Below, piece by piece: positions 2,347-57,686 of a DNA stretch of 64,000 nucleotides. The stretch is from NCBI GenBank assembly GCA_041659525.1, contig JBAZYC010000001.1:321775-385774 (forward strand). Direction: 5' to 3'. The notes under the pieces are model-generated. The model made no database searches. It was given only the letters and a program-made list of their open reading frames with translations, and was not told the origin of the DNA. This DNA comes from an archaeon (lineage in GTDB: Archaea; Iainarchaeota; Iainarchaeia; Iainarchaeales; JAAZKV01). Position 1 is the first letter of the stretch; each line of letters begins with the position of its first letter. A program made the translations under genes and the position numbers.

Positions 2347-4290
2347 CTATTCCTTCACCCACTTTTCTTCTTCTTGGGGTTTAGTTTGTCCACCAGTAAG
2401 CATTGCAACCAAAATTACTGCTGCAACTATTACTAATAAGATTATTCCTAGTGCACTAATGTTTCCGCCAAATGCGAATAATCCTGCAAACCCTCCCTCC
2501 CCACTTGTAGAGAATTCTTTGCTTATTTCTTGCCCATTAGCAGAGAAAGTTACTTTTCCTCTTCCCTCTGTTGCATTAGTTGTTGGAGTTACGTTTACAA
2601 CAAAAACGTTTTTTCCAGGAGAGAGTGAAACAGTTCTATCTGAACTTACCCACCCATTAGGAGTTTGTACTGAAAGTACCCCCAAGAATGATTTTGTTGT
2701 TGGATTATTTACTTCCACAGTTAAAGTTAGTTCTCCAGTGTTAGCATCTTTAGTTGAATTAATTGTCATTATTGCTTGAGTTAGTTCTCCAGTCCCAGTA
2801 TTAGTTATTGCCACCCTTGTAGTTGAAAAATTACATCCTTCTACAACTGGTCTGAAGTTTATTTCTCCACTTGTTGAATTAATTTTTACTTGTAAGTCTC
2901 TGCTTATTGAAGTTTTTTCTGGTAGAGAAATTATTGAAGGGGTTGCTTCTACACTTCCTTCAATGTAAATATCTGCTCTTTTGTTTGTCCCATTAGTTAT
3001 TGTGAATGGAACTGATCCATAATTTTGTACACTTACACTTGTTGGTGCACTTAGTGAGAAAGCACTACAATTAGCTGCTCCGCTCCCAACTTGATTTATT
3101 ACATTTATGTTAAATGTCTTTGGAGTAATACTAGTAAATGAACAAGTTCTTCCATCAGAGAATTGCCCTCTTACTTTTACTGTATTATCATAAGCTCTGT
3201 CTTGTAATACACTTGGAGCTACTGCTCTAAATATAATATCAGAGTATTGTCCTGAGAAAATATATTTCTCATTATAATAATTTGATAATTCTACTCCGTT
3301 GTTTGTTGTTTGTACTTCTAATATTTCAAATCTTTTTGTTGAATCGTTCTTTAGAGTAACACTTAATTTGCTTTCAGTGGATTCATCCATTGAAAAGTTA
3401 TTTGCGCTTATTAAAATATCATCACAATCTGAACTTGTACTATATCCATTGTCATAATAATATCCATCATAGTAGTATCCACTATCATTATTCCCAGTAT
3501 TTTGCACTGTTACACTAAAAGTTTCTCTACCAATATCTGATGTTGAACAATAAGTATTTCCTAAGTATCCTGCTACTTCCATTGTTGAAGTAATAGTACT
3601 ATTACTTGAAACTGTTCCTGCGTTTAATGTTACACTTATTGGTTCGCTTGAGTAAGCTGAAACAATATTGTCATAATTTGTACTTCCTGAATTTATTAAA
3701 GAATTTGTAGAAAGAATATTCATTGTTGTTATTCTAAATTCTTGATTAGTATTATTTTCTATACTAAATGTTCTTGTTGTGCTTCTTGCTTCATCAATTG
3801 TAATATTACTTGTAGAAAGAATTATTCCGCTACAAGAATTATCTTCAATATCTACGTAACTTTCAGTTCTATCAAGTTCTGTTGATCCAACTAAAACTAC
3901 TCCTTCAATTCTATATCTATCATAGTTGTTGTTACTTCCAGTATTGAATTCGTTATCCCATTGTAATTGAACTGTTCCTCGGGCAAGGTCTTGAGATTTT
4001 GTAGAAGTTGTCCTGTATGTTTCCCAACTCGAAGTATTTACATTGTATTTTGAAACAATTGCTTTTGAAGAAATTGTTGATGGACAATCACTACCAGAGT
4101 AACTGTCTATGTAAAAATAATTTTTAATATCAATATCAGTATTTTTTGAGGCTGAGATACTTGAGTAAAAATCAGCTGTTCCTCTTACTTCTGTTGTAAA
4201 AGAACTCAATTCTACGTTGCAAGCCATTGCTCCGCTTAGTAAAATAGTTACTAGAACCAGCATCGAAATTATTCTTGTTTTCAAATCCAT
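2347..4290 (-). CDS. Secreted Ser/Thr/Asn-rich cell-surface protein with C-terminal GLFAFGGN motif plus TM anchor
   Basis: 647-aa ORF with an N-terminal hydrophobic signal (ISMLVLVTILLSGAMAC), many N-x-S/T sequons and scattered Cys pairs. The C-terminus reads GGFAGLFAFGGNISALGIILLVIVAAVILVAMLTGG. A GGGGTGA Shine-Dalgarno-like element precedes the ATG. Confidence 0.6.
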   Translation of the reverse strand: MDLKTRIISMLVLVTILLSGAMACNVELSSFTTEVRGTADFYSSISASKNTDIDIKNYFYIDSYSGSDCPSTISSKAIVSKYNVNTSSWETYRTTSTKSQDLARGTVQLQWDNEFNTGSNNNYDRYRIEGVVLVGSTELDRTESYVDIEDNSCSGIILSTSNITIDEARSTTRTFSIENNTNQEFRITTMNILSTNSLINSGSTNYDNIVSAYSSEPISVTLNAGTVSSNSTITSTMEVAGYLGNTYCSTSDIGRETFSVTVQNTGNNDSGYYYDGYYYDNGYSTSSDCDDILISANNFSMDESTESKLSVTLKNDSTKRFEILEVQTTNNGVELSNYYNEKYIFSGQYSDIIFRAVAPSVLQDRAYDNTVKVRGQFSDGRTCSFTSITPKTFNINVINQVGSGAANCSAFSLSAPTSVSVQNYGSVPFTITNGTNKRADIYIEGSVEATPSIISLPEKTSISRDLQVKINSTSGEINFRPVVEGCNFSTTRVAITNTGTGELTQAIMTINSTKDANTGELTLTVEVNNPTTKSFLGVLSVQTPNGWVSSDRTVSLSPGKNVFVVNVTPTTNATEGRGKVTFSANGQEISKEFSTSGEGGFAGLFAFGGNISALGIILLVIVAAVILVAMLTGGQTKPQEEEKWVKE

Positions 4291-4503: not shown

Positions 4504-4533
4504 ACTAAATTAGAACTATTATTTGTTAACTCT

Positions 4534-5565: not shown

Positions 5566-5650
5566 TTTTTGTCCACCCCAATTTTTACTAAAAAAATATT
5601 ATCAGGAACTCTTTATTAACCTCACTTTTTTATAAGGGGGTTTTTGAAAA

Positions 5651-7105: not shown

Positions 7106-7168
7106 TTAATTCACTTTTGAATAATTATTAATTAAATAGAAAGGTTTTTGTTTTGCCCGCTTTGCTCT

Positions 7169-7624: not shown

Positions 7625-7662
7625 TTTTTCTTTTCTTTTTATTATTTTTATTTTATCAATTA

Positions 7663-7974
7663 TTATTTTTTTATTATTTTATTTATCTTTTTATTTTCTT
7701 TTTTTATTGATTTTGATTTAATGTGTTTTTCACTCAATATTGAAAATAAGAAATATAATGCTATTATTGCCCAAATAAATTCCAAAAAAATAAATGCCGT
7801 GGAATCTTTTGCAACTGCATAAAGCCCCATTATAACTGAGCCGATGAAATTTAATCCATTAAAAAGAATTGTTCTTCTTTTAGTGTGTTTTTTTGCATTC
7901 AACACAAACGCGATTAGCAAAATAACTAATCCTAATACTCCAAATCCTTCTAGTAAGAAATCCATAATAACCAC
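7663..7974 (-). CDS. Small 3-TM membrane protein (unknown function)
   Basis: 103-aa ORF with three hydrophobic helices and a Lys-rich tail. No family was recognised. Confidence 0.4.
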   Translation of the reverse strand: MVIMDFLLEGFGVLGLVILLIAFVLNAKKHTKRRTILFNGLNFIGSVIMGLYAVAKDSTAFIFLEFIWAIIALYFLFSILSEKHIKSKSIKKENKKINKIIKK

Positions 7975-8072
7975 AAAAGCTAAGGACTTAGAAGTTTTTA
8001 TACTTTAAGTTCAGAACTAAATCAAAAGTTTGTTAAAAAAATTAAAAAAAAGAAAAAAAGAGTTGAAAGGTT

Positions 8073-8384
8073 TTATCCTTTCAAATCAATTTCTAAGTGT
8101 ACACTTTCTGGTATCTCTACTCTCATTACTCTTTTTAGAGTTCTTTCGTCTGCTTGGATATCCAAAATTCTTTTGTATATTCTCATTTGCCATTGTTCGT
8201 AGGATTCTGTTCCTCCTCCACAAGGCCCTTTTCTAGTTGGAATACAAAGTTTTTTAGTTGGTAGAGGAATTTTTCCGGAGTGCTTTGCGCCTGTCCTTTC
8301 TGCAACGTCTAAAATCTTGTTGCATATGTCCTCTAACGTTTCAAAACTAGTACTACTTAATTTTATTCTTGCTGTCTGCATCAA
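8073..8384 (-). CDS. rps10: 30S ribosomal protein uS10
   Basis: 103-aa ORF (ARIKLSSTS...GAKHSGKIPLPTKKL...RIYKRILDI) directly downstream of aEF-1alpha, as in archaeal str clusters. Confidence 0.9.
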   Translation of the reverse strand: MMQTARIKLSSTSFETLEDICNKILDVAERTGAKHSGKIPLPTKKLCIPTRKGPCGGGTESYEQWQMRIYKRILDIQADERTLKRVMRVEIPESVHLEIDLKG

Positions 8385-8414
8385 AACACCCTCTTCTCCA
8401 TTATAAATATTAGG

Positions 8415-8474
8415 ACGGAAACCGGAAAAATCTCCGGTCCCCGTTTTTAATTATTATTTCCAGCTTTGAGCTGG
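8415..8474. other. Two stable hairpins in the tuf-rps10 spacer
   Basis: Hairpin A spans 8415-8444 (acgg..accgga/tccggt..ccgt). Hairpin B spans 8460-8474 (ccagc tttga gctgg). T-tracts follow both hairpins only on the plus strand. Confidence 0.5.
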
Positions 8475-8486
8475 AGTTGTTTTTAT

Positions 8487-9752
8487 TTATGCTTTTTCTA
8501 CTTCTAGTACAACTCCTGCTGCTACTGTTTGTCCCATATCTCTGATTGCGAATCTACCCATTTGTGGGAATTCAGAGAATTTTTCTAGACATACTGGTTT
8601 CATTGGAACAATCTTTACGATTGCTGCGTCTCCAGTCTTCAAGAACTTAGGGTTCTCTTCAACTGTAGCTCCAGTCTTAGGATCCATTCTCTTTCTTAAT
8701 TCAGTCAGAGTCATTGACATTTGTACTGTGTGTATGTGGAACACAGGTGTGTACCCTACAGGGATTGCTGTTGGGTGGTTTAGTACAACGATTTGTGCTA
8801 CGAATGATTTAGCAACTGTTGGTGGACTTGTTACACTTCCAACAACGTCTCCTCTAGTCATGTCTTCAGCACTTAATCCTCTAATTGAGAATCCAATGTT
8901 GTTACCAGGTTTTCCAACTGTTAGTTGTGTGTGGTGTTCTTCTAGAGATTTTACTTCTCCTGTCTTTCCACTTGGCATTACAACTACTTTGTCTCCTGCT
9001 TTAACAGTTCCAGTTTCGATTCTTCCAACTGGAATTGCTCCAACACCCTTGATGTTATAAACATCTTGTAATGGAATTCTTAGTGGTTTGTCAACTGGTG
9101 ATGGTGGTGCTTGTAAATCATCTAAAGTTTCTAGTAATGATTTTCCTGCGTACCATTTCATGTTGTCAGTTTTCTTAACAACGTTATCCCCTCTCCATGA
9201 TGAGATTGGAACAACTTTTACATTGTCAGCTTTGTATCCACTACCTGTAAGTAATTTAGTTACTTCTTCTTTCAAAACTTTATATCTTGCTTCATCGTAA
9301 TTAACTTCGTCCATCTTGTTTAATGCAACAACGATGTGTTTAATCCCCATAACTTGTGCAAGGAAAGCGTGTTCTCTTGTTTGTGGTTGTATACCATCTT
9401 TTGCAGCAACAACTAAAACAGCTACATCAGCTTGACTTGTTCCTGTAATCATGTTCTTTACAAAGTCCTTGTGTCCAGGAGCATCGATAATTGTGAAAGT
9501 GTGGTTCTTTGCTTCAAATTTTTTATAAGAAACATCGATTGTTATTCCTCTTTCTCTTTCTTCTTTTAAGTTATCCATTACATACGCGAATACGAATGTT
9601 CCTTTTCCTCTTGATTTAGCTTCTTCTTCAAGTTTTCTATATTCTTGTTCAGAAAGAGCTCCTCCGTCATAAAGTAATCTACCAACAGTAGTTGATTTAC
9701 CATGATCAACGTGTCCAATAAAAACAACATTGATTAAATCCTTTTCAGCCAT
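8487..9752 (-). CDS. tuf: Translation elongation factor aEF-1alpha
   Basis: 421-aa ORF with GTPase motifs [14 protein letters not shown] and NKMD plus full EF-Tu domains II and III. GGAGGAAT lies upstream of the ATG. Confidence 0.96.
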
Positions 9753-9863
9753 ATTAATTCCTCCAATGAACTTTGCTTAATGGTCCTGCGACCACGTGTT
9801 TCGCGTCACACTTCGATTTTGAGCCGTTCACCAGGCAACGCTATTATTCAATTTCTTCTTAGA

Positions 9864-9879
9864 AAGCTTTTAAAAGCTT
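9864..9879 (-). promoter_or_regulatory. Palindromic TATA-like element upstream of tuf
   Basis: aagcttttaaaagctt is a 16-nt perfect palindrome with a TTTTAAAA core, ~115 nt upstream of the tuf ATG. Confidence 0.3.
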
Positions 9880-9927
9880 GGGCTTAACTCCGACTGAATT
9901 TAAGAGGAAAAACGAGTTATTTTGAAG

Positions 9928-10641
9928 TTAGCGCCTCAATCTGGTTTTTTTGAGCTTGATTCTTTTTTTAGCAATCGATTCTCTTTGATTAACTTTGTTT
10001 TGAAGAACAATTGCTGCATCAAATCTATCTCGCCTACTTGCTATGTTTAGGAGTTTTTCTCGTTCAAGTCTTGCTTGATTTGCTTCTTTGGATAGCTTAG
10101 TAGAAACCTCTTTTGCAGAGCTGTGTCCGGTTCTAATAATCTTAATTATCAAGTCTCTTTCTTTAAATGGAGCTAGATTTATTTTTGAACTAATCTTTTC
10201 ATTTGCCAGTTCTCTCACTAGCCCTTTAATGTGCCCAGCTCCAACTAAAACAACTAATTTTGGTTTCTTTAGGGTGTAAAGAATGGATTTTATATTACGC
10301 ACAAAAGCCTTTTCTCTTTGTGAACATAATTTTGATTCTTTTGCTGAATAATATTCATCTAAATGAGTAGTTTCTCCGTAATGAGAATTTGAAGAAACTT
10401 TTCGATGTCTTGTTATTAATGGAAAAGATTCTATAGGAACTAATTTTATATTTAATTTCCCACATTCATGAATAATTTCAATCAAAGCATTAGTTGGTGG
10501 TAAACCAAAATCCTTTTGGTTTGCTTCAACACACAAAACAGAATTCTTAGGAAGCTGCTTTATGTAATCAACTACTTCAGCGTGAGCTTCAAAAGATAAA
10601 TCGTGTACCCACGGAACTAATTCAACTTGAGGATTAACCAT
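9928..10641 (-). CDS. TraB/GumN/Tiki-superfamily-like protein, paralog A (tentative)
   Basis: 237-aa ORF. N-terminal VELVPWVHDL...SVLCVEA and later REKAFVRNIK...KLVVLVGAGHIKGL resemble the two GxxH-type motifs and the RExxM-like segment of TraB/PrgY/Tiki proteins. It ends in the basic tail KKRIKLKKTRLRR. This is a family call by eye only. Confidence 0.45.
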   Translation of the reverse strand: MVNPQVELVPWVHDLSFEAHAEVVDYIKQLPKNSVLCVEANQKDFGLPPTNALIEIIHECGKLNIKLVPIESFPLITRHRKVSSNSHYGETTHLDEYYSAKESKLCSQREKAFVRNIKSILYTLKKPKLVVLVGAGHIKGLVRELANEKISSKINLAPFKERDLIIKIIRTGHSSAKEVSTKLSKEANQARLEREKLLNIASRRDRFDAAIVLQNKVNQRESIAKKRIKLKKTRLRR

Positions 10642-30966: not shown

Positions 30967-31782
30967 CTAAGAGTACAATTTTTTCTTTCTATTATTAGCA
31001 TACATTGCTATTCCTGCAATTATTACTAGTGCAACTAAAAAAATCATCCCAATTGTAAGACTTTGATTTGATCCCAAAGCAAATAATCCTCCAAAGACAG
31101 CATTCTCAACTGCTTTTGTTTTTGTTAGTTCGTTTAAATCAGAACCAATTTGTGTTAGTACTTCTTCTTTTGTTTTATCGCTTTCTTGTAAAGAAGAAAC
31201 TTTACTATTTATTTGATTAAGTGAATTTACTAAATCCACATTTGCTTGTCTTAATTTTGTTAGTTCTTCTTGTTTTAAATTCAAATCTTGTTGAAGAGTA
31301 GTAATTGTTTTGTTTTGATTGTTTACTGTTACTTGCATACTACCTAATTTTGAATTTAGTTCTTCCCTTTCTGAATAAGAGAGTGGTCTAAAAAAAGTTA
31401 TTTGAACAGAAGTAGAGTCTTCTAAAGAACTTCCTTGAAATATTTTTGCTTCAAGTGCTTTTTCTCCTTCACTTTCTCCAGCAAATGAAATAACTATTTT
31501 GTTTGAATAAATATTGTAACTAATTACTTTTTCATTAGTGTAAATACCAGATCCATCAAGCGAACTAAGGATTAGTTCGTTATCTAAATATACTTTTAGT
31601 TCTGCTCCGCTAGGAAGAGAGTAACTAACAGCGGCAGACCATTGGGTCCCTGCAGGGATATTTTGTTCAGTAGAAATACTTAGTGCTGTGCAAGTACTCA
31701 AAGAAAACAAGCAGAATAGCAAAAAAGCAATTAAATTCAGTTTATTCATTTTATCACTGGTTGTATTACAGAGTAATTTCAC
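30967..31782 (-). CDS. Secreted coiled-coil surface protein with C-terminal GLFALGSN motif, TM anchor and basic tail
   Basis: 271-aa ORF with an N-terminal signal (IAFLLFCLFSLSTCTA) and central heptad-like Leu/Gln/Asn-rich region. The C-terminus reads VFGGLFALGSNQSLTIGMIFLVALVIIAGIAMYANNRKKKLYS. Confidence 0.55.
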   Translation of the reverse strand: MKLLCNTTSDKMNKLNLIAFLLFCLFSLSTCTALSISTEQNIPAGTQWSAAVSYSLPSGAELKVYLDNELILSSLDGSGIYTNEKVISYNIYSNKIVISFAGESEGEKALEAKIFQGSSLEDSTSVQITFFRPLSYSEREELNSKLGSMQVTVNNQNKTITTLQQDLNLKQEELTKLRQANVDLVNSLNQINSKVSSLQESDKTKEEVLTQIGSDLNELTKTKAVENAVFGGLFALGSNQSLTIGMIFLVALVIIAGIAMYANNRKKKLYS

Positions 31783-36020: not shown

Positions 36021-37790
36021 TTATTCAAGCATTGCTAAAAGTACTTCTTTTAGTATTTCTTCTCTAATATTTTTAATTGCTTCTTTTACTTGTATTGCTT
36101 CTTCTTCTGTAAAGCTTGAAACATTATCTCTTATAATTTTTTTAACTTCATCAATTTTGATTACTGCTTGGTTTAGCAGTTCTGTTGCTCTTAAGAATTT
36201 GTTAGCATCAGCGTCTTTTCCAACGCTAGTGTAATAATCAGCTATTGCACTAGTCTTTTCAGCAGTTTTTGCCAAATCTATTTTTAATGATTCTAATTTT
36301 AATGCAAGTTCTAATAATTTTCCTTGGTCAGAAATTATTTCTTTGTTTATTTTTGTTTTATTCAAATCATCTTCTTTTGCTCCAACACAATCAGACCAAA
36401 CTAAACAGTTATTTTCATTGAATTTTGTTAAATATTTTCCACCATTTTGTTCACAATAAGAATATTTTTCAATAGGAATTTGTTCTTGGGTTATACAAGC
36501 TGAAACAAAATCTTTATCAGAACTTTTTGCGCACTCATATTTTTGACATTTTTCATCATCAAGTTTGATTACTACTTGTCCGTTTTCTTTGTAGCATTCA
36601 TCTTTCATTTTCTTTATTTCTTCATAGGGCTGTATTTCGCAAATTGGTTTTACTTGAGTAGAACAGCTTGACTCAATTCTTCCATCAGAGCACTTTTTTA
36701 TTTTGCATCCGTTTTCATCAAAATTAATTTCACAATTAGGGTCACAAGATTCTTTTACTTGGAAATCAATAACATAAACTTCCCCGCCAATACACTTTGA
36801 AATAGTGGTACTTGTTCCGCCAGCGCTTCCAGAAGCAGCCGAAACTCCGCTTGTTGCAGTTAAGTTTCCAGTTATAGGATTAGTTGCACTTGTTGTTGTA
36901 GAAGTGTTTGTAGGAGCAGGGGTGGTAGTGGTTGTTGAAGTTGTTGCTTGAGGAATAGTTGTTGCGCACTTTGTACTATATCCATTACAAAACTCATTTG
37001 CTTTTTGCTTCCATTCAGCAATAGGAACGCATTTCCCATTTGTCTCTCCAAAATAAAATTCTTTTCCATTTGAGCATTTTCCATAAGCTATTTTGTAAAA
37101 ATCTTGAGGAACATTTACTTTGCAAAAAGGATGAACGCATCCTCTTTCATCAGTTTTAGAAACTACTTCTCCATTTGGACAATAAGGAGGAGAATAAATT
37201 GGACAATCAAAAATACATTTCCCTCCCGCATCAGGATAAGTTCCATCTAATTTACAAGTAAATCCGCTAGGGCACTGAATTGCTGCAATTCCCCCACAAA
37301 ACTTTTCAGTTGAATTTTCAGCACAAGTTCCTTCACTAATTATTTCTACCCCAACGCATTTAGCCATGCACTTGTTTGAGTAAGTATTTCCATTCGCTCC
37401 GCAAACAGGCATATATTCTTTTGTACAAATACAATCAACAGGTAGTGGTTCAATTTCTTTACATTCCCCTTCATACAAAATAGTTGCATTTTCTGCGTTA
37501 GCCATGCACTTGTTTCCATAAGTTTTGATTACTTTTTGGGTAGCACATTTACACATTGCCCCAGTAGGACACTCACAAGGGAGTTGAATATAAGTTGCTC
37601 CGCAAACAGGAGCATATTCCATTGTACAAGCTATTTGAGTAGAATCAGTTTGTACTTCATTTGAATCATCAGTATTTGAATCATCAGCATTCGAATCATT
37701 AGTGTTTGAATCGTCAGTATTTGAGTCAACCGCAAATACACTCATTGCAACTAGTAGTAAGCAAAATAAAACCAAAAATTTCTTTTCCAT
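36021..37790 (-). CDS. Secreted cysteine-rich protein with Kazal-type domains, Thr-rich linker and C-terminal helical region
   Basis: 589-aa ORF with a signal peptide and a (DSNxD)n repeat. CICTKEYMPVCGANGNTYSNKCMAKCVGVEIISEGTC fits the Kazal pattern C..Y.PVCG..G.TY.N.C...C. A second Kazal-like unit has an insertion. A TTSTTTTTPAPTNTSTTTSATN linker follows. Confidence 0.7.
   Translation of the reverse strand: MEKKFLVLFCLLLVAMSVFAVDSNTDDSNTNDSNADDSNTDDSNEVQTDSTQIACTMEYAPVCGATYIQLPCECPTGAMCKCATQKVIKTYGNKCMANAENATILYEGECKEIEPLPVDCICTKEYMPVCGANGNTYSNKCMAKCVGVEIISEGTCAENSTEKFCGGIAAIQCPSGFTCKLDGTYPDAGGKCIFDCPIYSPPYCPNGEVVSKTDERGCVHPFCKVNVPQDFYKIAYGKCSNGKEFYFGETNGKCVPIAEWKQKANEFCNGYSTKCATTIPQATTSTTTTTPAPTNTSTTTSATNPITGNLTATSGVSAASGSAGGTSTTISKCIGGEVYVIDFQVKESCDPNCEINFDENGCKIKKCSDGRIESSCSTQVKPICEIQPYEEIKKMKDECYKENGQVVIKLDDEKCQKYECAKSSDKDFVSACITQEQIPIEKYSYCEQNGGKYLTKFNENNCLVWSDCVGAKEDDLNKTKINKEIISDQGKLLELALKLESLKIDLAKTAEKTSAIADYYTSVGKDADANKFLRATELLNQAVIKIDEVKKIIRDNVSSFTEEEAIQVKEAIKNIREEILKEVLLAMLE
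37661..37735 (-). repeat. 5 x 15-nt in-frame tandem repeat encoding (D-S-N-x-D)n
   Basis: On the plus strand, tttgaatcatcagta, tttgaatcatcagca, ttcgaatcattagtg, tttgaatcgtcagta and tttgagtcaaccgca lie inside the 36021..37790 CDS. Confidence 0.85.
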
Positions 37791-41673: not shown

Positions 41674-41774
41674 TTAATCAAGTTCTTTTTCGTTCACACC
41701 ATCCAATTAGTCTAACTCTTTCTCGTTTACACTATTCAATTTAATCTAGTTCCTTCTCATAGTGCCCGCGTGTG
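41674..41774 (-). repeat. Three tandem 33-34-nt copies of the U32 gene 3' end, each ending in TAA
   Basis: On the minus strand the gene ends ...cac tat gag aag gaa cta gat taa. Next comes ttg aat agt gta aac gag aaa gag tta gac taa, then ttg gat ggt gtg aac gaa aaa gaa ctt gat taa. Confidence 0.7.
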
Positions 41775-44136
41775 AATGAAGCGAATTTCTTTTTTGCATT
41801 TCTTCCATTTATTTTGTCAATTGCAAATTCAATTGCCATTAATACTTCTCGGTCTTCAAATGCAGAGAAATCTATTCCAACTAACCCATATTTAGAAAAT
41901 CTTTGTAATTCAAATAACATATCAACGTGAACTGGATTGTAGAGTCTTAGGATTTTGTCTTCATCAAATCTTGCTCGATATTCAAATCCTTTTCTATCAA
42001 CTAGCACGTAATCTTTTTGCTTTATCTCCCCGTTTTTAGTGTAAGCTTTTGAAGTCATTAAAAGCGGGTAAAAGAAAACAATTGGAACTAGTTTTGAAGT
42101 ATTCTTCAGGTTGTGTATTTGTAAAAAAGAACATTCAACGCTTGGAACTACTTTTTCTGCACCCAAATCAAGCATTAATTTTTCGCTTAGTGAATTAAAT
42201 ACGTTTAATTCTCTATCAACCCAAAATTTGAATTCCTTATTTTTCTTTTTTCTTTGAATTGCAATATAAAGCGCACCTAAATTTGATACAACAAGGTTAT
42301 CCTCTTTTGTTGCTAAATCAAAATCACTTGCTTGGTTTGTAGTTTGAATGTTTGGTGCTTTTACATAAAAGTTTTTTAAAGAAAAATTTTCTTTAGCAAC
42401 AGCTAAATCTTTTACCCCTGAATAATAATGAATTACAGTGTTGAATTCAACGTGGGTTTTAATTAAATTAGTTGTTTCTTCATTAATATTTTTATCAACA
42501 AATACTGCGTAAGCAATTGTGTTTGTTTTTTCATTTTTGCTTACTTCATTTAATAAAACATTTAGTTTTACTGCAAAAACATTTTCGTCAATTGAGTTTC
42601 TGTTTTGTTCAAAAAGAGTGCTTTCCATTTTTTGGAAAATTATTGCTTTGAAATCTTTTAATCTACTTAATGGAATAAATGGTTTTCCTTTTATTTCAGA
42701 AGAGAATTCCCTTGGAGAAAAATAATCTGAGGATTTGAATATTTTTTCTTTCATTAGTTCAGGAGTAGTTTGAGCAGTTTTTGATTCTTCAAGAACAAAT
42801 CCTGAAAGTATTTTTACTTTGTGTTTACCAAATTCTGCTACCGCACTTAATTCTTGTCCGCTTACTGCAAATACTCTTAAATCATAAGACATTTTTTCAG
42901 TTCGCTTTAGTGAAGCAAATGCAGAGTCAACTAGTTGTTGATTTGTAATCATATACAAATTTGAACCCATTTCTACAAATGGTCTTTTTCCCGTATCAAT
43001 GAAAACAAATTGTCCACCAAATGCTTTGTTTACTTCTTTTGATCCATTAAATATTCTTTTTATTTGGAATTCTTCTGATTTTTCTTTGTAAATTACTGCA
43101 AGTCTATCCCATTGGTAAATTGGTTCTATTACTTCTAATTTTAGCATTCCTTGATTAAATCCAATTACTTTTGCGGCGAGTATTCCTTTGTGTGCCGGAC
43201 TTTCTTTTGAAATCATTTGGGGCTCTTCAAAAAAGTATCCGCGAGTATTCTCTCTTGCAAAAGCAATTTTCACCATTTTTTCATCTTGGTTGTTTAATTG
43301 TTTTTCAGCAGGGTTTTCTACAAAACAATCATCAATCGCTTTTCGGTAAGCTCGTGCTACTGTTGCAACGTAACTAATTCCCTTTAGTCTTCCTTCTACT
43401 TTAAATGAATCAATTCCCGCATCAACTAGTGGTTGAATATCACTTAGAGTGTTAAGATCTTTCATTGAGAGAACAAAGTTCTTTTCATTATCAGGAAGAT
43501 TTATTTGTTTTCCTTTTTCAAATAAACTATAATTCATTCTACAAGGTTGCAGACACATTCCTCTGTTTCCTGATTTGTTAAATACAAATGAACTAAATGT
43601 ACATTGACCAGAGTAAGAGAAACATAGTGCTCCGTGAATAAAAGTTTCTATCCCCACTCCTCTTTTTTGCATTACTTTTTTTATTTCTTTTATTTCAGTT
43701 AAAGATAATTCTCGTGAGAGAACAATTTTTTTCGCACCTAAATCTGCAAGTAATTCTGCTCCTGCTAAGTTATGGCAGGTTGTTTGAGTAGAAGCGTGTA
43801 TTTCTAAATCTGGCAATAGTTCATGTATTGCGCTCATTAGTCCAAGGTCCTGAATTATTACTGCATCCATCCCTAAACAATAAGCGTTTTTTGCAAGTTC
43901 AATTGCTTCTTTTAATTCAGAGTCTTTAACTAAAATATTTATTGCTAAATAAACTTTTTTTCCATAGAAGTGAGCAAAATCAATTCCTTGTTTTAGTTCT
44001 TCATCATCAAAATTTCTTGCAGGAATTCTAGCATTAAACTTTCTTGAACCTAGTAAACTGCGTCTGCTCCGTTAAGTATAGAGGCTTTTAGCATATCCAG
44101 TGTTCCTGCTGGCAAAATTAATTCAGGTTTATTCAT
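41741..44136 (-). pseudogene. Peptidase U32 family protein (long form), reading frame broken by a 1-nt frameshift after codon 28
   Basis: ATG at 44136 gives MNKPELILPAGTLDMLKASILNGADAVY, then TAG at 44052-44050. The -1 frame continues LGSRKFNARIPARNFDDEELKQGIDFAHFYGKKVYLAINILVKD...CLGMDAVIIQDLG into the 709-aa ORF 41741..43870 (FIHGALCFSYSGQC, NRGMCLQPCR). The junction restores the family motif GADAVYLG. Confidence 0.8.
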
Positions 44137-44215: not shown

Positions 44216-44650
44216 TTACTCTACAATGATTTTTGCTTTCATTGAAGGGTGAGAGGTACAGTGATAAGCGTATTCACCTATTGTATTGAAAGTGTGTTGG
44301 TAAACTGATCCTTTTGCTCTTAAACCTGAATCAAGTTCTGTTCCAATATCAGAAGTTACTGTATGCTGGGATGAATCATAATTTTGCCAAGCTACTGTAT
44401 CCCCTTTCTTTATTGTTAATTCGGCTGGATAATAAGCAAAATTCTCTATTCTAATAGAATAAACTTTTGAACCTACATTTCCATCAATTGTATTATTGTC
44501 AAATCCAGTTTGAACAAAATCAGGAGTATTATTTCCTTTAGCATTATTTTGCGGTTCAGGATTAGTTGATATAGTTGATTGAGTGCATCCAAATAATGTT
44601 GCGAAAAGGAGTATTCCTAAAACTAATCCAAAAATAGCTTTTGACTTCAT
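44216..44650 (-). CDS. Lipobox-anchored type-1 copper protein (amicyanin/plastocyanin-like cupredoxin)
   Basis: 144-aa ORF with signal LFATLFGC-TQS. Copper ligands are spaced as HTV...C-T-S-H-P-S-M (CxxHxxM), as in amicyanin. Confidence 0.8.
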   Translation of the reverse strand: MKSKAIFGLVLGILLFATLFGCTQSTISTNPEPQNNAKGNNTPDFVQTGFDNNTIDGNVGSKVYSIRIENFAYYPAELTIKKGDTVAWQNYDSSQHTVTSDIGTELDSGLRAKGSVYQHTFNTIGEYAYHCTSHPSMKAKIIVE

Positions 44651-46872: not shown

Positions 46873-48204
46873 TTATCTAGGAAGAGTATGTCCCCAAGTT
46901 TTGAGTGCTTCTTTTAGTGCAGGACAAGTTTTTGCTTTTTCTTCTACACTTATTTTCTCTAAATAAGCTTCTACTGCAGCCCTCATTGCAACTGCTCCAG
47001 CGTGACTTCCTTTAGGATGTCCATGTACCCCCCCACCAAGTTGAATCATTATGTTTGTTCCAAACATTTTGAATATTTGATCCACTATTCCAGGGTGTAG
47101 TCCTCCGCTTGATACGGGGAACACTGGTTTTAATCCACTCCAATCTTGAGCAAGAGTGTGTTCTCTCATATTTTCTTTTGTCTTAGTGGCAGTTAACTCT
47201 TGTTGGCATTGTAGTACTTCATCTCTTGGGCTAACTAATTTTCCAATGCTTGTTCCAATGTGTAATTGATCTACTCCAATTAGTCTTGAGAGTTTTGAAA
47301 CGCAGTTCATTGAGAAACCGTGGTCAGGGTCTCTAGTCATTGCCCCATGCATTGCTCTATGAGCGTGTATTGCAAGTCCTAAGTCTTCACATTCTTCTCT
47401 TAGAGAATTTACTGCAGTCCAACCTGATGCAATGATATCAATCATTACGTATTCTCCGCCCATTTTTTTTACGTACCGTGCTCTGTCAAGCATTTCTTCT
47501 ACAGTGGGCGCAGTTACATTAATCAAGTAAGATTTTTTTTCCCCAGTTTCTTTTTCTGCTTTGTCTCTCATCTTCAAAGATTTTTCTACTCTTTTTTTGA
47601 ATGGATTAAATTTTTGGTTAGTTAAATTTTCATCATCTTTTAGTAAATCTAGTCCGCCTGTCCAAATATCATATCCTACTTGGGCATGTTCTTCAGTAGT
47701 CATTCCTACTTTTGGTTTTGCAACACTAAGCATCAATGGTCTTTTTTCTTCATTGAATATTTTTCTTATTCCCACAATTCCTTTTTTTGGTCCGCGGTAT
47801 TTTTTCACCATGTTTTTTGAAAATACAATATCTTGTAATCGAAGTCCGTCAACTGCTTTCATTCCAAAAACATTTCCAGCAATTGAAGCTAGTATTTGGC
47901 TTGGATTTTCTTGTTCAAAGTGATCTTCTGGGTAAGCAATTTTTATCCAATAACCTGCAGGAGTGTGTTCTACGCTGTATACTTTTGCAGCAACTTTTCT
48001 TACGTGTGGGTACTTTGCCCAAATATCTAAATCGGTCCAAGTTCCTACACTTGATTCGCTAGCAACTGCTCCAAATGCGCGTTCTGGAGTCTCCCATTCT
48101 GGTACTTTTACTTTGAATACTGCGAGCACATCTTTGTTATTAGGTTTGTACCCTAAATCAACAAAATCTTCATATCCAGCCATTTTTACATCACCTAAGA
48201 TCAA
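46873..48204 (-). CDS. rbcL: Ribulose-1,5-bisphosphate carboxylase large subunit, archaeal form III type
   Basis: 443-aa ORF with GYKPNNKDVLAVFKV, SESSVGTWT, AKPKVGMT, DLLKDDENLT (carbamylated Lys context), HAHRAMHGAM and GGGVHGHP. No small-subunit gene is present. Confidence 0.93.
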   Translation of the reverse strand: MILGDVKMAGYEDFVDLGYKPNNKDVLAVFKVKVPEWETPERAFGAVASESSVGTWTDLDIWAKYPHVRKVAAKVYSVEHTPAGYWIKIAYPEDHFEQENPSQILASIAGNVFGMKAVDGLRLQDIVFSKNMVKKYRGPKKGIVGIRKIFNEEKRPLMLSVAKPKVGMTTEEHAQVGYDIWTGGLDLLKDDENLTNQKFNPFKKRVEKSLKMRDKAEKETGEKKSYLINVTAPTVEEMLDRARYVKKMGGEYVMIDIIASGWTAVNSLREECEDLGLAIHAHRAMHGAMTRDPDHGFSMNCVSKLSRLIGVDQLHIGTSIGKLVSPRDEVLQCQQELTATKTKENMREHTLAQDWSGLKPVFPVSSGGLHPGIVDQIFKMFGTNIMIQLGGGVHGHPKGSHAGAVAMRAAVEAYLEKISVEEKAKTCPALKEALKTWGHTLPR

Positions 48205-50371: not shown

Positions 50372-50887
50372 ATGAATGGTAAAATCAGCGCACTGGTATT
50401 TGCAGTACTTGCATTAGCATTACTCTCAATCTCTGGTTGTGTTACCCCAGTTGATGAGCAAAAGAACTTTGATGCTTTAGCAAAACTTCAAACCACTTAT
50501 TTAGTAAAAACAGGTTTTTCTTCTAACCTTTCTACTATGAGCGATTACATTAATTTGCTTTCTGAATTAAAATCTAAAACTAGTGGTAGTGCTGGAAAAG
50601 TTATTGAAGCAGAACTATATTCAGCTCAAACATTTTACTATTACAACAAAGCTCTTGTTGATTCCACTTCAATTGATTATCAAAAAATGAGTTGTTCTTC
50701 TACCGCAACTAAATCAACTATTTCCTCAATTACTCTTGCAAATGATTACGCTACAAAAGCAACTACTGCATTAAGCGGTTTGTTTGAAAATGAAAAAGAT
50801 AAATTAAGAGCAAATCAACTTGAAACAGTAAAAGGTTATGCTGAACAAATAACCCAAATACAAAAGTTCTTTGCAGATAAATGCTAA
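50372..50887 (+). CDS. Lipobox protein (unknown function)
   Basis: 171-aa ORF with signal ALVFAVLALALLSISGC-VTP and a helical remainder ending in Cys. Confidence 0.5.
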   Translation: MNGKISALVFAVLALALLSISGCVTPVDEQKNFDALAKLQTTYLVKTGFSSNLSTMSDYINLLSELKSKTSGSAGKVIEAELYSAQTFYYYNKALVDSTSIDYQKMSCSSTATKSTISSITLANDYATKATTALSGLFENEKDKLRANQLETVKGYAEQITQIQKFFADKC

Positions 50888-52965: not shown

Positions 52966-53676
52966 ATGGCTCTAAACGATCCATTGGAACTAATTCTAAT
53001 ACTAATCTTTCTGGCAGCGTTTTCTATATTTTCTTACAAAAAGAAACTACTTGACTTTGAAGGAATACTAATTGCTAATGCTGTAGGACTTGCAGCAATA
53101 ACTTATGGACCAAATCCATTAGTAGATTTTGGAATAGTTGTAGTATTTTTTATCCTCGGGGAAATTGCAAGTAATTTTCCAAGAAAGAAACATGAGAGAA
53201 GAAATATTTGGAACGTAATAGGAAATTCTCTTCCTGCACTAATTGTTTTAGTTGGAATAATTTTCTTTCCCCAGTACTCTGTTTTAATTGAACTAGGTTT
53301 CTTTGGAGCAATAGCTGCTGCACTCGCAGACACATTATCTTCAGAAGTTGGATATTATTCAAAATCCACTCCTATAATGATTACTACTTTAAAGAAAGTC
53401 CCAAGAGGGACAGATGGAGGAGTAACTCTTTTAGGAGAATTTGCTGCACTAATTGGAGGAGCAGTAATTGCTTTAGTTTATTTTTATATTTACAATAACC
53501 CAATAGCGGCGACATTTGTTTTGCTTGCTGGGTTAGTTGGATCTAATGTTGATTCAATCTTTGGAGCACTATTTGAAACAAAGAAACTAATGAACAACAC
53601 CCACGTGAACATGATTGGTTCTGCTGCAGGTGCAATCTTTTGCTTAGTGTTAGGCTTATTAATTGGAATAAACTAA
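52966..53676 (+). CDS. DUF92/TMEM19-family integral membrane protein
   Basis: 236-aa polytopic ORF with the family-typical ALADTLSSEVG segment and a Gly-rich C-terminal helix pair. Confidence 0.7.
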   Translation: MALNDPLELILILIFLAAFSIFSYKKKLLDFEGILIANAVGLAAITYGPNPLVDFGIVVVFFILGEIASNFPRKKHERRNIWNVIGNSLPALIVLVGIIFFPQYSVLIELGFFGAIAAALADTLSSEVGYYSKSTPIMITTLKKVPRGTDGGVTLLGEFAALIGGAVIALVYFYIYNNPIAATFVLLAGLVGSNVDSIFGALFETKKLMNNTHVNMIGSAAGAIFCLVLGLLIGIN

Positions 53677-53729
53677 AATCTAATTAAATTAAAGATTGAG
53701 TTGAAAAGAGTCTAGCTCGAGTTGATTAA

Positions 53730-54242
53730 ATGGGAATAATAGAAGCAATAATAGTAACTCTTCTTTATGTTGCTCCGCTTTACATTGCTAATTCTTCTCC
53801 AGTAATAGTTCACGGGAAAGTTCCTCTTGATTTAAACAAAAAAATTTTTGGCCAACCTATTTTTGGTAAAGGAAAAACTATGCTAGGAACTTTTGCAGGA
53901 ATTATAGCAGGAACGGGTATTGGAACAATTATTTTTTTATTATTTCCTTTTGTAGAAAACATTATCCCTAATTACTTACAACTTGCTTTCCTCCTTGCTT
54001 TTGGAGCAATAATAGGAGATTTAGCAAAGAGTTTTTTTAAAAGAAGATTTTCAATTAAGAGTGGGGAAAAGTGGGAACTTGCTGATCAATTAGATTTCAT
54101 AGTGGGTGGATTGTTACTTAGTATGTTAATTAGAGTTCCCGAACTTTGGCTTGTAGCACTATTGCTTTTTGCAACTTTCTTCATCCACAAAGTAATGAAT
54201 TGGCTAGCATTCAAATTAAAATTAAAGACCGTTCCTTGGTGA
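53730..54242 (+). CDS. carS: CDP-archaeol synthase
   Basis: 170-aa ORF with YIANSSPV, GKGKTMLGTFAG, GDLAKSFFKRR and ADQLDF motifs typical of CarS (DUF46). Confidence 0.85.
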   Translation: MGIIEAIIVTLLYVAPLYIANSSPVIVHGKVPLDLNKKIFGQPIFGKGKTMLGTFAGIIAGTGIGTIIFLLFPFVENIIPNYLQLAFLLAFGAIIGDLAKSFFKRRFSIKSGEKWELADQLDFIVGGLLLSMLIRVPELWLVALLLFATFFIHKVMNWLAFKLKLKTVPW

Positions 54243-54247
54243 ATTAA

Positions 54248-54823
54248 ATGACTAAAAATAAACTTAACAAAAATAAAAAAGCAAAAACAATTACTAAGAA
54301 AACTAATAAACTTCTTAGAAGTGGTTCTAACTCGACTAAAAAGGCTGCTAATAGAAAAAAAATGTTAGTATTTGCAATAAAATTCTTTGCAATATTTATA
54401 GTTCTGAATTTTTTAATTGAACTAGTTGACCTTTCTTTCTTAACAAACGCAATTACGCAAATCGCAGCAACTATTTTAGGGCTTGATTATTTACTAAATG
54501 TTGTTTATGTGAACAATGGATTGTTTATTGTTTCAAATCTTTGCACTGGACTAGTTAGTGCTAGTATTTTGGCTGCAATTATCTTTTCACTTAACAAACC
54601 AGAACTATCAAAGAAAACTACTTTATTTTTAGCAGGGTTGATAATATTACTAGCAGTAAACATCCCTAGAATAATTTTTGTTTTGTTTGTTGCAAAATAT
54701 GGTTTTGATGCTGAGTTAGTTCACGAACTTACTTGGTTTGTAATGAGTGGATTAGTACTATTGATTTGGTATTATGGTTCTAAAAGATTACTTAAACTAA
54801 AAGAAATTAGTGAACTACTTTAA
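54248..54823 (+). CDS. Exosortase/archaeosortase-family protein (short form)
   Basis: Polytopic ORF 5 nt after the carS stop. Ordered candidate catalytic residues are SNLCTGLVS (Cys), AVNIPRI (Arg) and LVHELTW (His), as in archaeosortases. The first 38 aa are Lys/Asn-rich, and an alternative start is the ATG at 54362. Confidence 0.6.
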   Translation: MTKNKLNKNKKAKTITKKTNKLLRSGSNSTKKAANRKKMLVFAIKFFAIFIVLNFLIELVDLSFLTNAITQIAATILGLDYLLNVVYVNNGLFIVSNLCTGLVSASILAAIIFSLNKPELSKKTTLFLAGLIILLAVNIPRIIFVLFVAKYGFDAELVHELTWFVMSGLVLLIWYYGSKRLLKLKEISELL

Positions 54824-54931: not shown

Positions 54932-56572
54932 TTATTCTTTTCTATCGTGTTCTTCTTTTCCATTAACAATCATTTGAACTATCTTTGTGAATGCTGGTCT
55001 TGTAATAAATATTCCCACTAATGCACCTACTATTGCAACTACTGCAAATCCGTAGAGTTTGTCTAGTCCCGGTAAGTTTCTTGAGAACAAAATAATTGGA
55101 AGCATTACTCCTATCATTGTGAATGCTGAAGTTGCGATGATGAATATAGCTGCTTTTGCTCTTTGGAGCATTGATTCGTGTGCTTCTTTTGATTTACCAA
55201 GTATCTCATCAGTAATAACTATTTCTGAGTCAACCCCAGTACCAATTGCAACAATTATTCCTGCGAACGCTGCTAAATCAATTGGTCTTTGAGTGAATGC
55301 TAAGAATCCTAGCATAATAAGTATTTCAGCCATTCCGGTTAAGAAAATTGGAATTACTAATTTTAGTACTCTGTATCTAAATACAATTACTCCAGCAACT
55401 GTTATTGCTGCTAAAATTCCCATTAAAAATACAGTTGATAAGAATGATTCACCAAGGGAAGGAGAGATTGTTTCTCTTGAAATACTTTTAACTGGAGTGG
55501 GTAAAGAACCTGATTCAAGTAAAATTGCAAGTTCTTCTAAATCCGCTCTTGCTTCTTTAACATCTTCTCTTTGACCAGATATTCTTAGTGTAGAAAATTC
55601 TTTTGCTTGTGCAAGTGTTGCAACATCTTCGTTAGTAATTCCTTCAGTTAAACTAATTATTTGTCTAGCTCCAGTAGCTGTCCAAATCCAAGGAATACTT
55701 TCTCTTCCATTAACTCTAAGAACAGTAAATCCTAGTGCGTTTAAATCGTTAACAATAGTTTCGCTAACTCCAGGAGAAACAACTGCGTTCTTTGTTGAAA
55801 GCAAAGCTGTTTGTACTTTGTTATTGTCAAGTGCTGCGTTTGTATCAATTGTTAGTACAGTTAACATTGAGTCACTAATTAATTCATCAATACTTGTATC
55901 TTGTGGAATATTTTGAAATTTATTTCCTTCAAGTAGTAATTGATTATCTCTATCATATTCTTCAGTAGTAGTAACAATTAGTGCGTTTGGTCTATCTAAA
56001 AAGAAAATTGTTTTTTCACAATCATAATTAGGAGTTCCGTTAGTAGAAAATCCAACTGCCGTGCATTGGTGGAAAGTTTTTTCCTTGAATCTCTTTACTG
56101 CTGCTTCGTTTAAGATAAATGGAAGACTCCATTCATAAGCAGTTCCTGCTCTAAATACTCCAAAAGAAGTATCTCCTCTTAGAACTTTCTTTAATTCATC
56201 CCCAGTAAAAACAACTTCCCCGTTTAAAGTAGCTTCAAACTTTCCTTGTTGTCTTATTCTTGATTCAACTTTCTCAAGTTCCACTGGGTTTGTCTCAGAT
56301 AATTGTACTACAATAAATTGGGTTCCCACAGGGTAAACTGTAGCGTCCTTTAGTCCTGAAGGATCTATTCTTTGAGAAATAATATTTGCAATTCTACTAA
56401 TTTCTTCAGCCGAAACACTTTTTTGTAATTCTACTTGGTATAAAGTTCCGCCCTTAAAATCCATTCCTAATTTTATTCCATTAAACGCAATTAAACCAAT
56501 TGCAAGTATAATTATTACTGCGAGGAAAGTAAATTGCCAGTGCTTGATTAAAGAGTTAGTCATGGTTATCAC
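54932..56572 (-). CDS. secD: Protein-export membrane protein SecD
   Basis: 546-aa ORF with an N-terminal TM helix, a large periplasmic-type domain and 5 C-terminal TM helices containing IAAFAGIIVAIGTGVDSEIVI. Confidence 0.88.
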   Translation of the reverse strand: MITMTNSLIKHWQFTFLAVIIILAIGLIAFNGIKLGMDFKGGTLYQVELQKSVSAEEISRIANIISQRIDPSGLKDATVYPVGTQFIVVQLSETNPVELEKVESRIRQQGKFEATLNGEVVFTGDELKKVLRGDTSFGVFRAGTAYEWSLPFILNEAAVKRFKEKTFHQCTAVGFSTNGTPNYDCEKTIFFLDRPNALIVTTTEEYDRDNQLLLEGNKFQNIPQDTSIDELISDSMLTVLTIDTNAALDNNKVQTALLSTKNAVVSPGVSETIVNDLNALGFTVLRVNGRESIPWIWTATGARQIISLTEGITNEDVATLAQAKEFSTLRISGQREDVKEARADLEELAILLESGSLPTPVKSISRETISPSLGESFLSTVFLMGILAAITVAGVIVFRYRVLKLVIPIFLTGMAEILIMLGFLAFTQRPIDLAAFAGIIVAIGTGVDSEIVITDEILGKSKEAHESMLQRAKAAIFIIATSAFTMIGVMLPIILFSRNLPGLDKLYGFAVVAIVGALVGIFITRPAFTKIVQMIVNGKEEHDRKE

Positions 56573-56594
56573 ATCAATTAAATATCAATTTAAC

Positions 56595-57686
56595 TTAAAA
56601 CTTTTTATGCTCCTTCTCTTTTTTTTCAACCCACCATAATAATACTGGGGCATTCATTAACCAAGTTGCAATTATATCTCCAATTAATCCGAAGAACAAA
56701 ATTACTGCTATTTGGTAAATAACTTCTATTTGGTAAAAGAAAGAAATAACTATCATTACTACTAGTGCTGCAAGAGCGGTACTAGTCATTGTTATTCCTG
56801 TTTTCATTGAAGAGGTTGCTCTTTCTCCAGGAGTCCCATCTTTTCCTTTTAGCATTCTTGAAGTAAGCATAATATCAGTATCAACCGAGTATCCAATTAA
56901 CATTAACAAAGCTGGCAGAGTAGTTAGCGATAAAGGTATTTGTAAAAGTGCCATTCCTGCTAGTCCTGCTAATGCATCAAAAAGCATTGCTTGAATTATT
57001 GCTGCCGATGGAATGAATTGTCTAAAAGCAGCAAAAACAACGATAGTAATCATAATCATTCCAAGTATTGAAACAAAAACAGAGGAAGAAAAAGAAGAAG
57101 CACCAAGCGTTGGAGAAATTTCTCTTTTCTGGAATTCAACTTTAGCCCCTAATTGAAGTTTTTCAGTCAAAGTATCTTGTAATTTTTTTGAGAAAGCTTC
57201 TTTGTAATCAGCAAGTGCTTGTTGAGCAGCCATTAAAGCTGCTTTCGCATTAGCAAATTCTTGTGTTGGTTGATTTAATAATTTTAGAGCTTCGTTTGAA
57301 GCAGCGATTGAATCTTTTTCTACTTCTAAAGAATCACTTGCTTTGTTCAAAACATTTTCAACATTTGTCACTAAAGGATCTTTACTATATTGTATCCATG
57401 CCCCGTATCCTGTTGGGGAAGCAATTGTTGATACTTTTAATTCTTGTAGAGAAAAATTTTCTTTTAAAACAGAAACAAGCTGTGATTCAACTATAGGATT
57501 TTCTGATCGTATAATTAATACATTTCCTCCAGTTAAGTCAACTCCTGGTTGAATTCCTGGGAAAATTAAAACTAAAAATAACAAAGGAATAGCTAGGATT
57601 AATGGGATTATCATCATTTTTTTGTATTTATCTTTGTAGAAATCCCACATTAAAAAAACCTTCTTTTCTAATAAAAGTAAATTCAA
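56595..57686 (-). CDS. secF: Protein-export membrane protein SecF
   Basis: The C-terminal 6-TM core contains LLMLIGYSVDTDIMLTSR. It lies upstream of secD (secF-secD order). The likely true start is the ATG at 57650 (MWDFYKDKYKK). Confidence 0.86.
   Translation of the reverse strand: MNLLLLEKKVFLMWDFYKDKYKKMMIIPLILAIPLLFLVLIFPGIQPGVDLTGGNVLIIRSENPIVESQLVSVLKENFSLQELKVSTIASPTGYGAWIQYSKDPLVTNVENVLNKASDSLEVEKDSIAASNEALKLLNQPTQEFANAKAALMAAQQALADYKEAFSKKLQDTLTEKLQLGAKVEFQKREISPTLGASSFSSSVFVSILGMIMITIVVFAAFRQFIPSAAIIQAMLFDALAGLAGMALLQIPLSLTTLPALLMLIGYSVDTDIMLTSRMLKGKDGTPGERATSSMKTGITMTSTALAALVVMIVISFFYQIEVIYQIAVILFFGLIGDIIATWLMNAPVLLWWVEKKEKEHKKF

Follow-up and report, generated by a model that had tools for sequence, protein, structure and literature searches.

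The analyzed DNA is a 64-kb stretch of the Iainarchaeota contig JBAZYC010000001.1 (here called the window) with a G+C content of ~32%. On its forward strand it encodes the CDP-archaeol synthase CarS and, directly behind it, a short protein of the exosortase/archaeosortase family (here called the sortase). With moderate confidence, it is proposed that carS makes up, together with the sortase gene, an operon that is conserved in and specific to the Iainarchaeota (Diapherotrites) and is probably coupled in translation, and that its sortase would attach surface proteins to a lipid anchor in a manner similar to ArtA. Relatives of the locus were found in metagenome-assembled genomes of Iainarchaeota/Diapherotrites, and the locus is also present in a groundwater metagenome.

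The carS gene (53730..54242, +) codes for a CDP-2,3-bis-(O-geranylgeranyl)-sn-glycerol synthase of 170 amino acids (aa), and the sortase gene (54248..54823, +) for a protein of 191 aa. The spacer between both genes (54243..54247, +) has a length of 5 nucleotides (nt), which is the shortest among the 43 co-directional junctions in the window (median 88 nt) and corresponds to the geometry of a translationally coupled operon. A polytopic membrane protein of the DUF92/TIGR00297 family (236 aa; 52966..53676, +) is encoded 53 nt upstream of carS. These coordinates agree exactly with the three co-directional genes and the two gaps reported in an earlier note on this DNA, and the peptides ADTLSSEVG, SNLCTGLVS, VNIPRI and VHELTW quoted there were all found in the translations of the open reading frames (ORFs). 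Downstream, secD (54932..56572, −) and secF (56595..57686, −), which together span 54932..57686 and match PF02355, PF07549 and PF21760, are convergent with the sortase gene and form its context outside of the operon.

For the analysis of gene order, 28 loci of GTDB species representatives were used together with a CarS-centred metagenome scan, resulting in 80 loci; in 65 of these, the sequence downstream of CarS was 500 bp or longer. The order in the 28 species genomes is Bud32-S15-S3Ae-DUF92-CarS-sortase-SecD(−)-SecF(−)-NOG1. The sortase gene directly follows carS in all 28 Iainarchaeota species genomes and in 36 of the 37 Iainarchaeota-type metagenome loci, so that the adjacency proposed for checking in the earlier note was found throughout the relatives with a single exception. 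None of the 28 CarS loci from other lineages has a CarS-adjacent sortase, though two of them, L094 and L097, carry ArtA at some distance from CarS.

When both genes of a junction were present, CarS and the sortase were adjacent in 65 of 66 cases, and the lone outlier (L058) has a spacer of 285 nt with no gene in between. The junctions on both sides are less stable: DUF92 and CarS were adjacent in 39 of 57 loci, and the sortase and SecD in 45 of 56. The junctions S15/S3Ae (47 of 47), S3Ae/DUF92 (50 of 50) and SecD/SecF (50 of 50) were never interrupted. Since both flanking junctions break (in 18 and 11 loci, respectively) while CarS/sortase holds, the conserved unit is carS-sortase and not DUF92-carS-sortase; DUF92 stays with S15-S3Ae. 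Thus, the gene string of the earlier note was retained for its last two members and dropped for the first. In addition, of the 19 relatives' loci that were parsed, 16 show either a gap of 0–7 nt between carS and the sortase gene or an overlap of 4–7 nt, and this geometry is kept while the N-terminus of the sortase ranges from 12 to 70 residues in length, which argues for coupling of the two genes.

Wherever an interrupted DUF92/CarS junction was inspected, the insert was a gene for an S49 signal-peptide peptidase (SppA) on the opposite strand. The insertion is found in the divergent Iainarchaeum clade (loci L013, L014, L018-L020, L022 and L024-L027; e.g., L014:3689-4612, −), where the resulting order SppA, CarS, sortase, SecD, SecF consists entirely of membrane and secretion functions. 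In L010, two paralogous ORFs with similar N-termini (9035-9442 and 9517-10182) are located downstream of the sortase gene, the first of which ends with a duplicated CarS C-terminus (…KMKLKKVPW).

The sortase exceeded the cutoffs of the exo_archaeo signature model TIGR04178 (36.4 bits, cutoff 23) and of PF09721 (Exosortase_EpsH; 30.7 bits, gathering cutoff 25.7), which bears out the family assignment made in the earlier note. The scores for the curated subtypes were below the respective cutoffs, namely 43.4 vs. 125 bits for ArtD (TIGR04175), 30.2 vs. 95 bits for ArtE (TIGR04124) and 25.2 vs. 80 bits for the pacearchaeosortase (NF033505), and the ArtA model (TIGR04125, cutoff 75 bits) was absent from the matches of the window sortase at E-values up to 1. 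All 28 aligned homologs match the ArtD, TIGR04178 and pacearchaeosortase models, and ArtD is the best-scoring subtype for each of the 28, the best member still being under the cutoff with an E-value of 5.9e-15. The ArtA model is matched weakly by 11 of these 28 homologs. Because the scores are far under every subtype cutoff, the sortase is, as judged from these models, a member of an uncurated, Iainarchaeota-specific subfamily of short archaeosortases. A first database search yielded 31 relatives and a second one 185; all named entries among them are listed under Diapherotrites or "archaeon", and they often already carry the description "exosortase/archaeosortase family protein".

The small size of the protein had been taken as a possible sign of a minimal variant in comparison to ArtA, which is ~270–320 aa long, has more transmembrane (TM) helices than the four of the window sortase and uses the PGF-CTERM signal. 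This expectation did not hold, as short archaeosortases are already curated: the models for ArtD, ArtE, the pacearchaeosortase and XrtX (exosortase X, NF046081) have 150–168 positions, which is similar to the size of the window sortase. Its core aligns with positions 3–145 of the 150-position ArtD model and shares the Cys/Arg/His motifs with ArtD. Unlike the curated short archaeosortases, the window clade carries an additional Lys-rich N-terminal extension of 30–70 residues. In the window sortase it comprises residues 1–39 (54248-54364), is cytoplasmic by prediction and precedes the core of four TM helices. Across the close clade the composition of the extension is conserved and its sequence is not; it is in frame and begins at the carS stop codon, and the divergent clade is without it.

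Three residues in the order described for the family, Cys99 of the CTG motif (codon 54542..54544, +), Arg141 of the NIPR motif (54668..54670, +) and His159 (54722..54724, +), are invariant in the alignment of 28 relatives, which share 42–80% identity with the window sortase. Thr100, Gly101, Asn138, Trp163, Trp174 and Lys179 are likewise invariant. Cys99 is the predicted nucleophile. In a profile-sequence alignment to ArtA, CTGL is placed over ACTGL, NIPR over NIVR and His over His; the comparator was the ArtA protein of locus L094 (TIGR04125, 172.9 bits, cutoff 75), so that the active-site motifs of this polytopic family of Cys transpeptidases align with those of the window sortase. In HvArtA, Cys173, Arg214 and Arg253 were shown to be critical by experiment (PMC9263693). 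The distance between Cys and Arg is 42 residues in the window sortase and 41 in HvArtA (Cys173/Arg214), whereas no equivalent of the critical Arg253 was established. The intact Cys/Arg/His set points to a catalytically intact family member.

The AlphaFold2 (AF2) model of the sortase has a mean predicted local distance difference test (pLDDT) score of 82.4, with values above 90 in the core, and a predicted template modelling (pTM) score of 0.69. It consists of a long TM1, an extracytoplasmic helix with three short strands and three more helices. The mean number of Lys and Arg residues over the family is 10.9 for the N-terminus, 4.1 for the loop at 116–123 and 3.3 for the C-terminus, compared to 0.6 and 0.7 for the two outside segments. 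From the helices of the model and this positive-inside charge map, a topology with a cytoplasmic N-terminus and four TM helices is predicted, with Cys99 at the outer end of TM2, Arg141 near the outer end of TM3 and His159 at the outer start of TM4. The predicted position of this site matches that of a cargo motif located just outside of the cargo's own TM helix. A Foldseek search of the PDB with the AF2 model gave a best E-value of 1.4, and a profile search of the PDB sequences returned nothing; no exosortase or archaeosortase structure exists for comparison. The HMM searches and the structure prediction called for in the earlier note gave a family-level assignment with a confidently modelled core and without any Art subtype.

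The identity of CarS is clear from NF003114 (156.7 bits, equivalog cutoff 148; residues 3–170 on positions 3–172 of 172) and PF01864 (E-value 1.1e-34). Furthermore, the protein is homologous over residues 6–170 to the solved CarS of A. pernix (5GUF; E-value 3.7e-21). What is new here is the operon partner, not CarS itself.

The DUF92 protein matches PF01940 strongly (173.1 bits, cutoff 27.5; E-value 8.9e-51), but remains below the cutoff of TIGR00297, a hypothetical equivalog (146 vs. 205.85 bits). DUF92, also known from TMEM19, is a family which we take to be equivalent to COG1836, and we know of no archaeal member that has been characterized. The phytyl-phosphate kinase VTE6 of plants is related to prokaryotic COG1836 sequences (PMC9782597). 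By this likeness, a role of the window protein in prenyl-phosphate metabolism may be considered; its constant partner in the locus is S3Ae and not carS. An identification of DUF92 with AliA or AliB of archaeal lipoprotein lipidation was rejected, as these proteins are arCOG02177 and arCOG02178 and DUF92 is not mentioned in their paper.

A link between a sortase gene and the CDP-archaeol pathway has precedents. In Methanosarcina, artA is juxtaposed with pssA and with pssD, and HvPssA and HvPssD are both required for the ArtA-dependent cleavage and lipidation (PMC7157517). According to the published model, CDP-archaeol gives rise to archaetidylserine and then to archaetidylethanolamine, the amine of which resolves the thioacyl enzyme (PMC7157517). 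NCBIfam also curates a "protein sorting system archaetidylserine decarboxylase" (NF038088). In locus L094, which belongs to an unrelated archaeal lineage with a higher GC content, CarS (3959-4516), ArtA (6933-7892) and PssD (7889-8458) are encoded on the same strand; ArtA lies 2.4 kb downstream of carS, and its end is overlapped by the archaetidylserine decarboxylase PssD. Locus L097 resembles L094 (525-1109 and 3507-3740), with its ArtA cut by the contig end. The proposed outcome, C-terminal cleavage and an archaetidyl lipid anchor, is the same for the ArtA-PssA-PssD system and for the Iainarchaeota operon. The linked genes differ, being pssA and pssD downstream of CDP-archaeol in the former and carS itself in the latter. 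No mention of carS beside an archaeosortase was found in the searchable literature. The sortase-lipid gene link is thus already published and only the carS partner is new.

The family-wide best candidates for a cargo were found in the relatives. A tripartite tail of the classical kind, composed of CxxC.K, ~15–20 residues, [IV]PD[NTY], a TM helix and KKR, ends 14 proteins in ~11 genomes. These are L001:4220-6169, L004:588-1796, L005:3152-6604, L007:1692-2165, L028:3998-4486 and 5080-6789, L114:2461-4467 and 5070-6800, L118:2563-6099, and one ORF each in L031, L032, L035, L038 and L041 (ORF ends at 553, 505, 815, 677 and 663, respectively). The N-terminal parts of these secreted proteins are unrelated (MopE-type repeats, a PKD domain or small proteins), and a C-terminal module of ~130 aa is common to them. 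The genes are always found in the slot immediately upstream of Bud32, at a distance of 3–6 kb from the sortase gene. In the slot of the nearest relatives, proteins with a class III (type IV pilin-like) signal peptide were also observed (L116:8015-9664 and 9734-9910; L118:2331-2504). The tails showed sub-threshold matches solely to models of archaeosortase signals (PEF-CTERM, Heimdall-CTERM, Loki-CTERM and PEFG-CTERM). A profile of six tails returned nothing from 5.8 billion proteins at E-values up to 10, the profile being too short for a database of this size. The ~130-aa module is regarded as a candidate for a new archaeosortase sorting signal.

In the window itself, two proteins share the pattern F.GLFA.G.N.S followed by a TM helix, and no other protein of the 64 kb combines a signal peptide with an anchor at the C-terminus. 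One is a secreted surface protein of 647 aa (2347..4290, −) with GLFAFG at 2467..2484 (−), followed by a TM helix and by a cytoplasmic tail that is acidic and contains Trp; the other is a secreted coiled-coil protein of 271 aa (30967..31782, −) which ends with GLFALGSNQS, a TM helix and NNRKKKLYS. Both are candidate cargo. Four orthologs of the 647-aa protein are 42–46% identical, and GLFAFG is the longest invariant run among them (W644 and C24 are invariant as well). Because of this, the motif is, by comparison of these orthologs, under real constraint. The Asn of GLFAxGxN is not conserved. For the same reason, an N-x-S sequon within the motif was rejected as a glycosylation signal. The tail behind the TM helix of the 647-aa family comprises 12–20 residues, is acidic and contains an invariant Trp. 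It is atypical for a peptide that is cut off, which suggests retention rather than discard.

An exhaustive profile search for the GLFA tail in 1.84 billion representatives resulted in 9 matches, all of which were orthologs or fragments of the 647-aa family or the 271-aa protein of the window itself; besides this protein (P0122), no GLFA-tail ortholog of the 271-aa protein was found in that search. No such tail was identified in ~872 kb of sortase-centred and CarS-centred loci of the relatives, and neither of the two GLFA tails matched a curated CTERM model, PGF-CTERM included, even at an E-value of 10. Neither this tail nor the [IV]PD[NT] tail passes any curated sorting-signal model. The shared C-terminal signal described in the earlier note is thus real as a tail, without a conserved Asn and in two families only. 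The [IV]PD[NT] tail is considered more likely to be the cognate signal of the family than the GLFA tail.

On contig Ga0268276_1000061 of the nearest relative, a GLFA ortholog occupies the same RtcB…L3 position and the carS-sortase operon is present. The near relative L118 has a protein of 1,178 aa with an IPDN tail in the slot upstream of Bud32. A GLFA ortholog adjoins an L3 protein, and an identical L3 sequence was likewise found on a contig of matching size (169,394 bp). Hence, one relative appears to possess both tails, the placement on the same contig being based on the match of the 169,394-bp size. A replacement of [IV]PD[NT] by GLFA in the subclade of the window was rejected, since L118 has the IPDN protein and the same population has the GLFA ortholog.

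An N-terminal feature of these proteins was also observed. The 647-aa family has an invariant Cys straight after the h-region of the signal peptide (…AC; residues 20–24), and the 271-aa protein has …LSTC at this place. A small protein encoded next to Bud32 (50372-50887, +) contains a textbook lipobox (LLSISGC). All three may be N-terminally lipidated lipoproteins, and in that case both termini of the 647-aa protein would be anchored.

The strongest competitor to the proposed operon is a conserved gene order without functional meaning. In this explanation the sortase is a genuine enzyme of protein sorting, but its place behind carS would result solely from the packing of membrane-protein genes into extended, conserved housekeeping operons in small DPANN genomes, and there is no special relation between the supply by CarS and the function of the sortase. 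Several observations weigh against a functional carS-sortase operon and agree with this alternative. The whole block of 8–9 genes from Bud32, S15 and S3Ae over DUF92, CarS and the sortase to SecDF is syntenic in the phylum and collinear in all loci. S15/S3Ae and SecD/SecF are as invariant as CarS/sortase, and so is S3Ae/DUF92, which has a gap of 12 nt and no obvious functional link; the conserved adjacency is for this reason suggestive of coupling and not a proof. It is confined to one phylum, and the chemistry of CarS is cytoplasmic, while the sortase site is predicted to face outward. Other observations weigh against the favored operon reading. One Iainarchaeota-type metagenome locus (L061) carries a Nudix/isopentenyl-diphosphate isomerase (IDI)-like gene instead of the sortase gene after carS (L061:2417-3091). 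RNA-seq evidence for co-transcription was sought, and the runs holding the locus were solely DNA runs from groundwater metagenomes. With a regular expression for the motif of CDP-alcohol phosphatidyltransferases (PssA type), neither the window nor L001-L028 gave a match; among the examined loci, PssD was identified in the unrelated L094 alone, and no PssA/PssD linkage was seen at the window sortase. The [IV]PD[NT] tail is absent from the 64-kb window and from the loci of the divergent clade. A mere packing of genes would not, however, readily account for a CarS/sortase junction that survives while both of its flanks break repeatedly, for a start-stop geometry that is kept despite the variable N-terminus of the sortase, or for the two independent precedents in which archaeosortases are found beside genes of the CDP-archaeol pathway (PMC7157517; L094). 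Passive synteny is therefore regarded as possible, though rather doubtful.

Two further explanations concern what the sortase acts on and with. The hypothesis of the earlier note was that GLFAxGxN with the TM helix is the cognate signal and that both window proteins are cleaved and lipid-anchored by the sortase. It agrees with the position of the motif, 3–4 residues outside of the C-terminal TM helix on two unrelated secreted proteins, with the constraint on GLFAFG at 42–46% identity, with the ortholog that shares a contig with carS-sortase in the nearest relative, and with the architecture of the only doubly equipped proteins of the window. Sorting signals normally decorate many protein families, though, and this one is confined to two. 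The variable Asn, the lack of a CTERM match, the tail that suggests retention and the empty loci of the relatives point in the same direction, and the apparent coexistence with an IPDN-tail protein in one relative speaks against a replacement within the lineage. We consider this hypothesis quite unlikely. The other explanation assumes a complex of CarS and the sortase, in which CDP-archaeol or a CarS-bound intermediate is the direct donor, so that a module of two genes needs neither PssA nor PssD. The coupling is tight and conserved, the C-terminus of CarS (KLKLKTVPW) and the Lys-rich N-terminus of the sortase are both predicted to be cytoplasmic, which makes a complex topologically possible, and the surroundings of the locus yielded no PssA motif. 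An apparent natural fusion of both proteins (P0150, 366 aa; L117:1262-2362 and L118:9482-10582) was examined as Rosetta-stone evidence and rejected as a gene-calling artefact, because its DNA, identical to that of L118, has a TGA stop which was read as Trp by the gene caller. Furthermore, the synthesis of CDP-archaeol takes place on the cytoplasmic side, and this lipid offers no obvious amine nucleophile to a thioacyl enzyme at the outer face. Since the product of CarS is made from cytoplasmic CTP and the site of the sortase is predicted to face outward, CarS is probably not the direct donor, and this explanation is highly improbable.

In the favored reading of carS and the sortase gene as a coupled operon, the sortase would recognize a tripartite C-terminal signal on surface proteins exported by Sec, as ArtA does, cleave it with Cys99 forming a thioacyl intermediate, and transfer the newly created C-terminus onto the head group of an archaetidyl lipid. 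Through the co-expression of carS, the provision of CDP-archaeol, which is the precursor for all archaetidyl head groups, would be adjusted to the output of the sortase. The best cargo over the family would be the proteins ending with CxxC…[IV]PD[NTY]-TM-KKR that are encoded a few kb upstream in many relatives; the two GLFAFG-tail proteins of the window are possible, but less likely cargo, and DUF92 would be a neighbor that belongs to the S15-S3Ae block.

Besides the genes described above, the window encodes a homolog of the RuBisCO large subunit (46873-48204, −), which shares 84% identity with its counterpart in the nearest relative, a cupredoxin/plastocyanin-like protein (44216-44650, −), a U32 peptidase (41741-43870, −) and a protein of 589 aa that contains a Kazal-type inhibitor domain (36021-37790, −). 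A scan for bacterial-type promoters and terminators gave results at background level; such models are not applicable to archaea.

To our knowledge, archaeosortase-dependent lipid anchoring has been demonstrated solely for ArtA in Haloferax. The chemistry of its lipid acceptor is still a model resting on the genetics of PssA and PssD. A further genomic link of an archaeosortase to the CDP-archaeol pathway, which is independent of the first and extends over a whole phylum, strengthens the idea that these enzymes are lipid-anchoring transpeptidases, and a very small sortase with a core of ~150 aa and four TM helices is suited to structural and biochemical work. Moreover, candidate cargo proteins are put forward whose sorting signal is uncurated and at present escapes annotation pipelines. 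In its most far-reaching form, the operon would represent a minimal lipidation system of the Iainarchaeota, in which CarS and a 4-TM archaeosortase are produced together in stoichiometric amounts and the latter acts on a so far unnamed CxxC…[IV]PD[N/T]-CTERM signal and possibly on a second, unusual GLFAFG signal of the main surface protein; this form is speculative and unlikely to hold as a whole. If the stoichiometric co-production is true, no earlier case would be known of a sortase that is tied to the committed CDP-archaeol step instead of the head-group enzymes. Should these genomes also be without pssA and pssD, the acceptor would be a lipid other than the archaetidylethanolamine suggested in the case of ArtA. 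For the DPANN archaea, the finding suggests that cells of this reduced kind devote resources to surface proteins with a covalent lipid anchor, and such proteins are candidates for contacts between cells.

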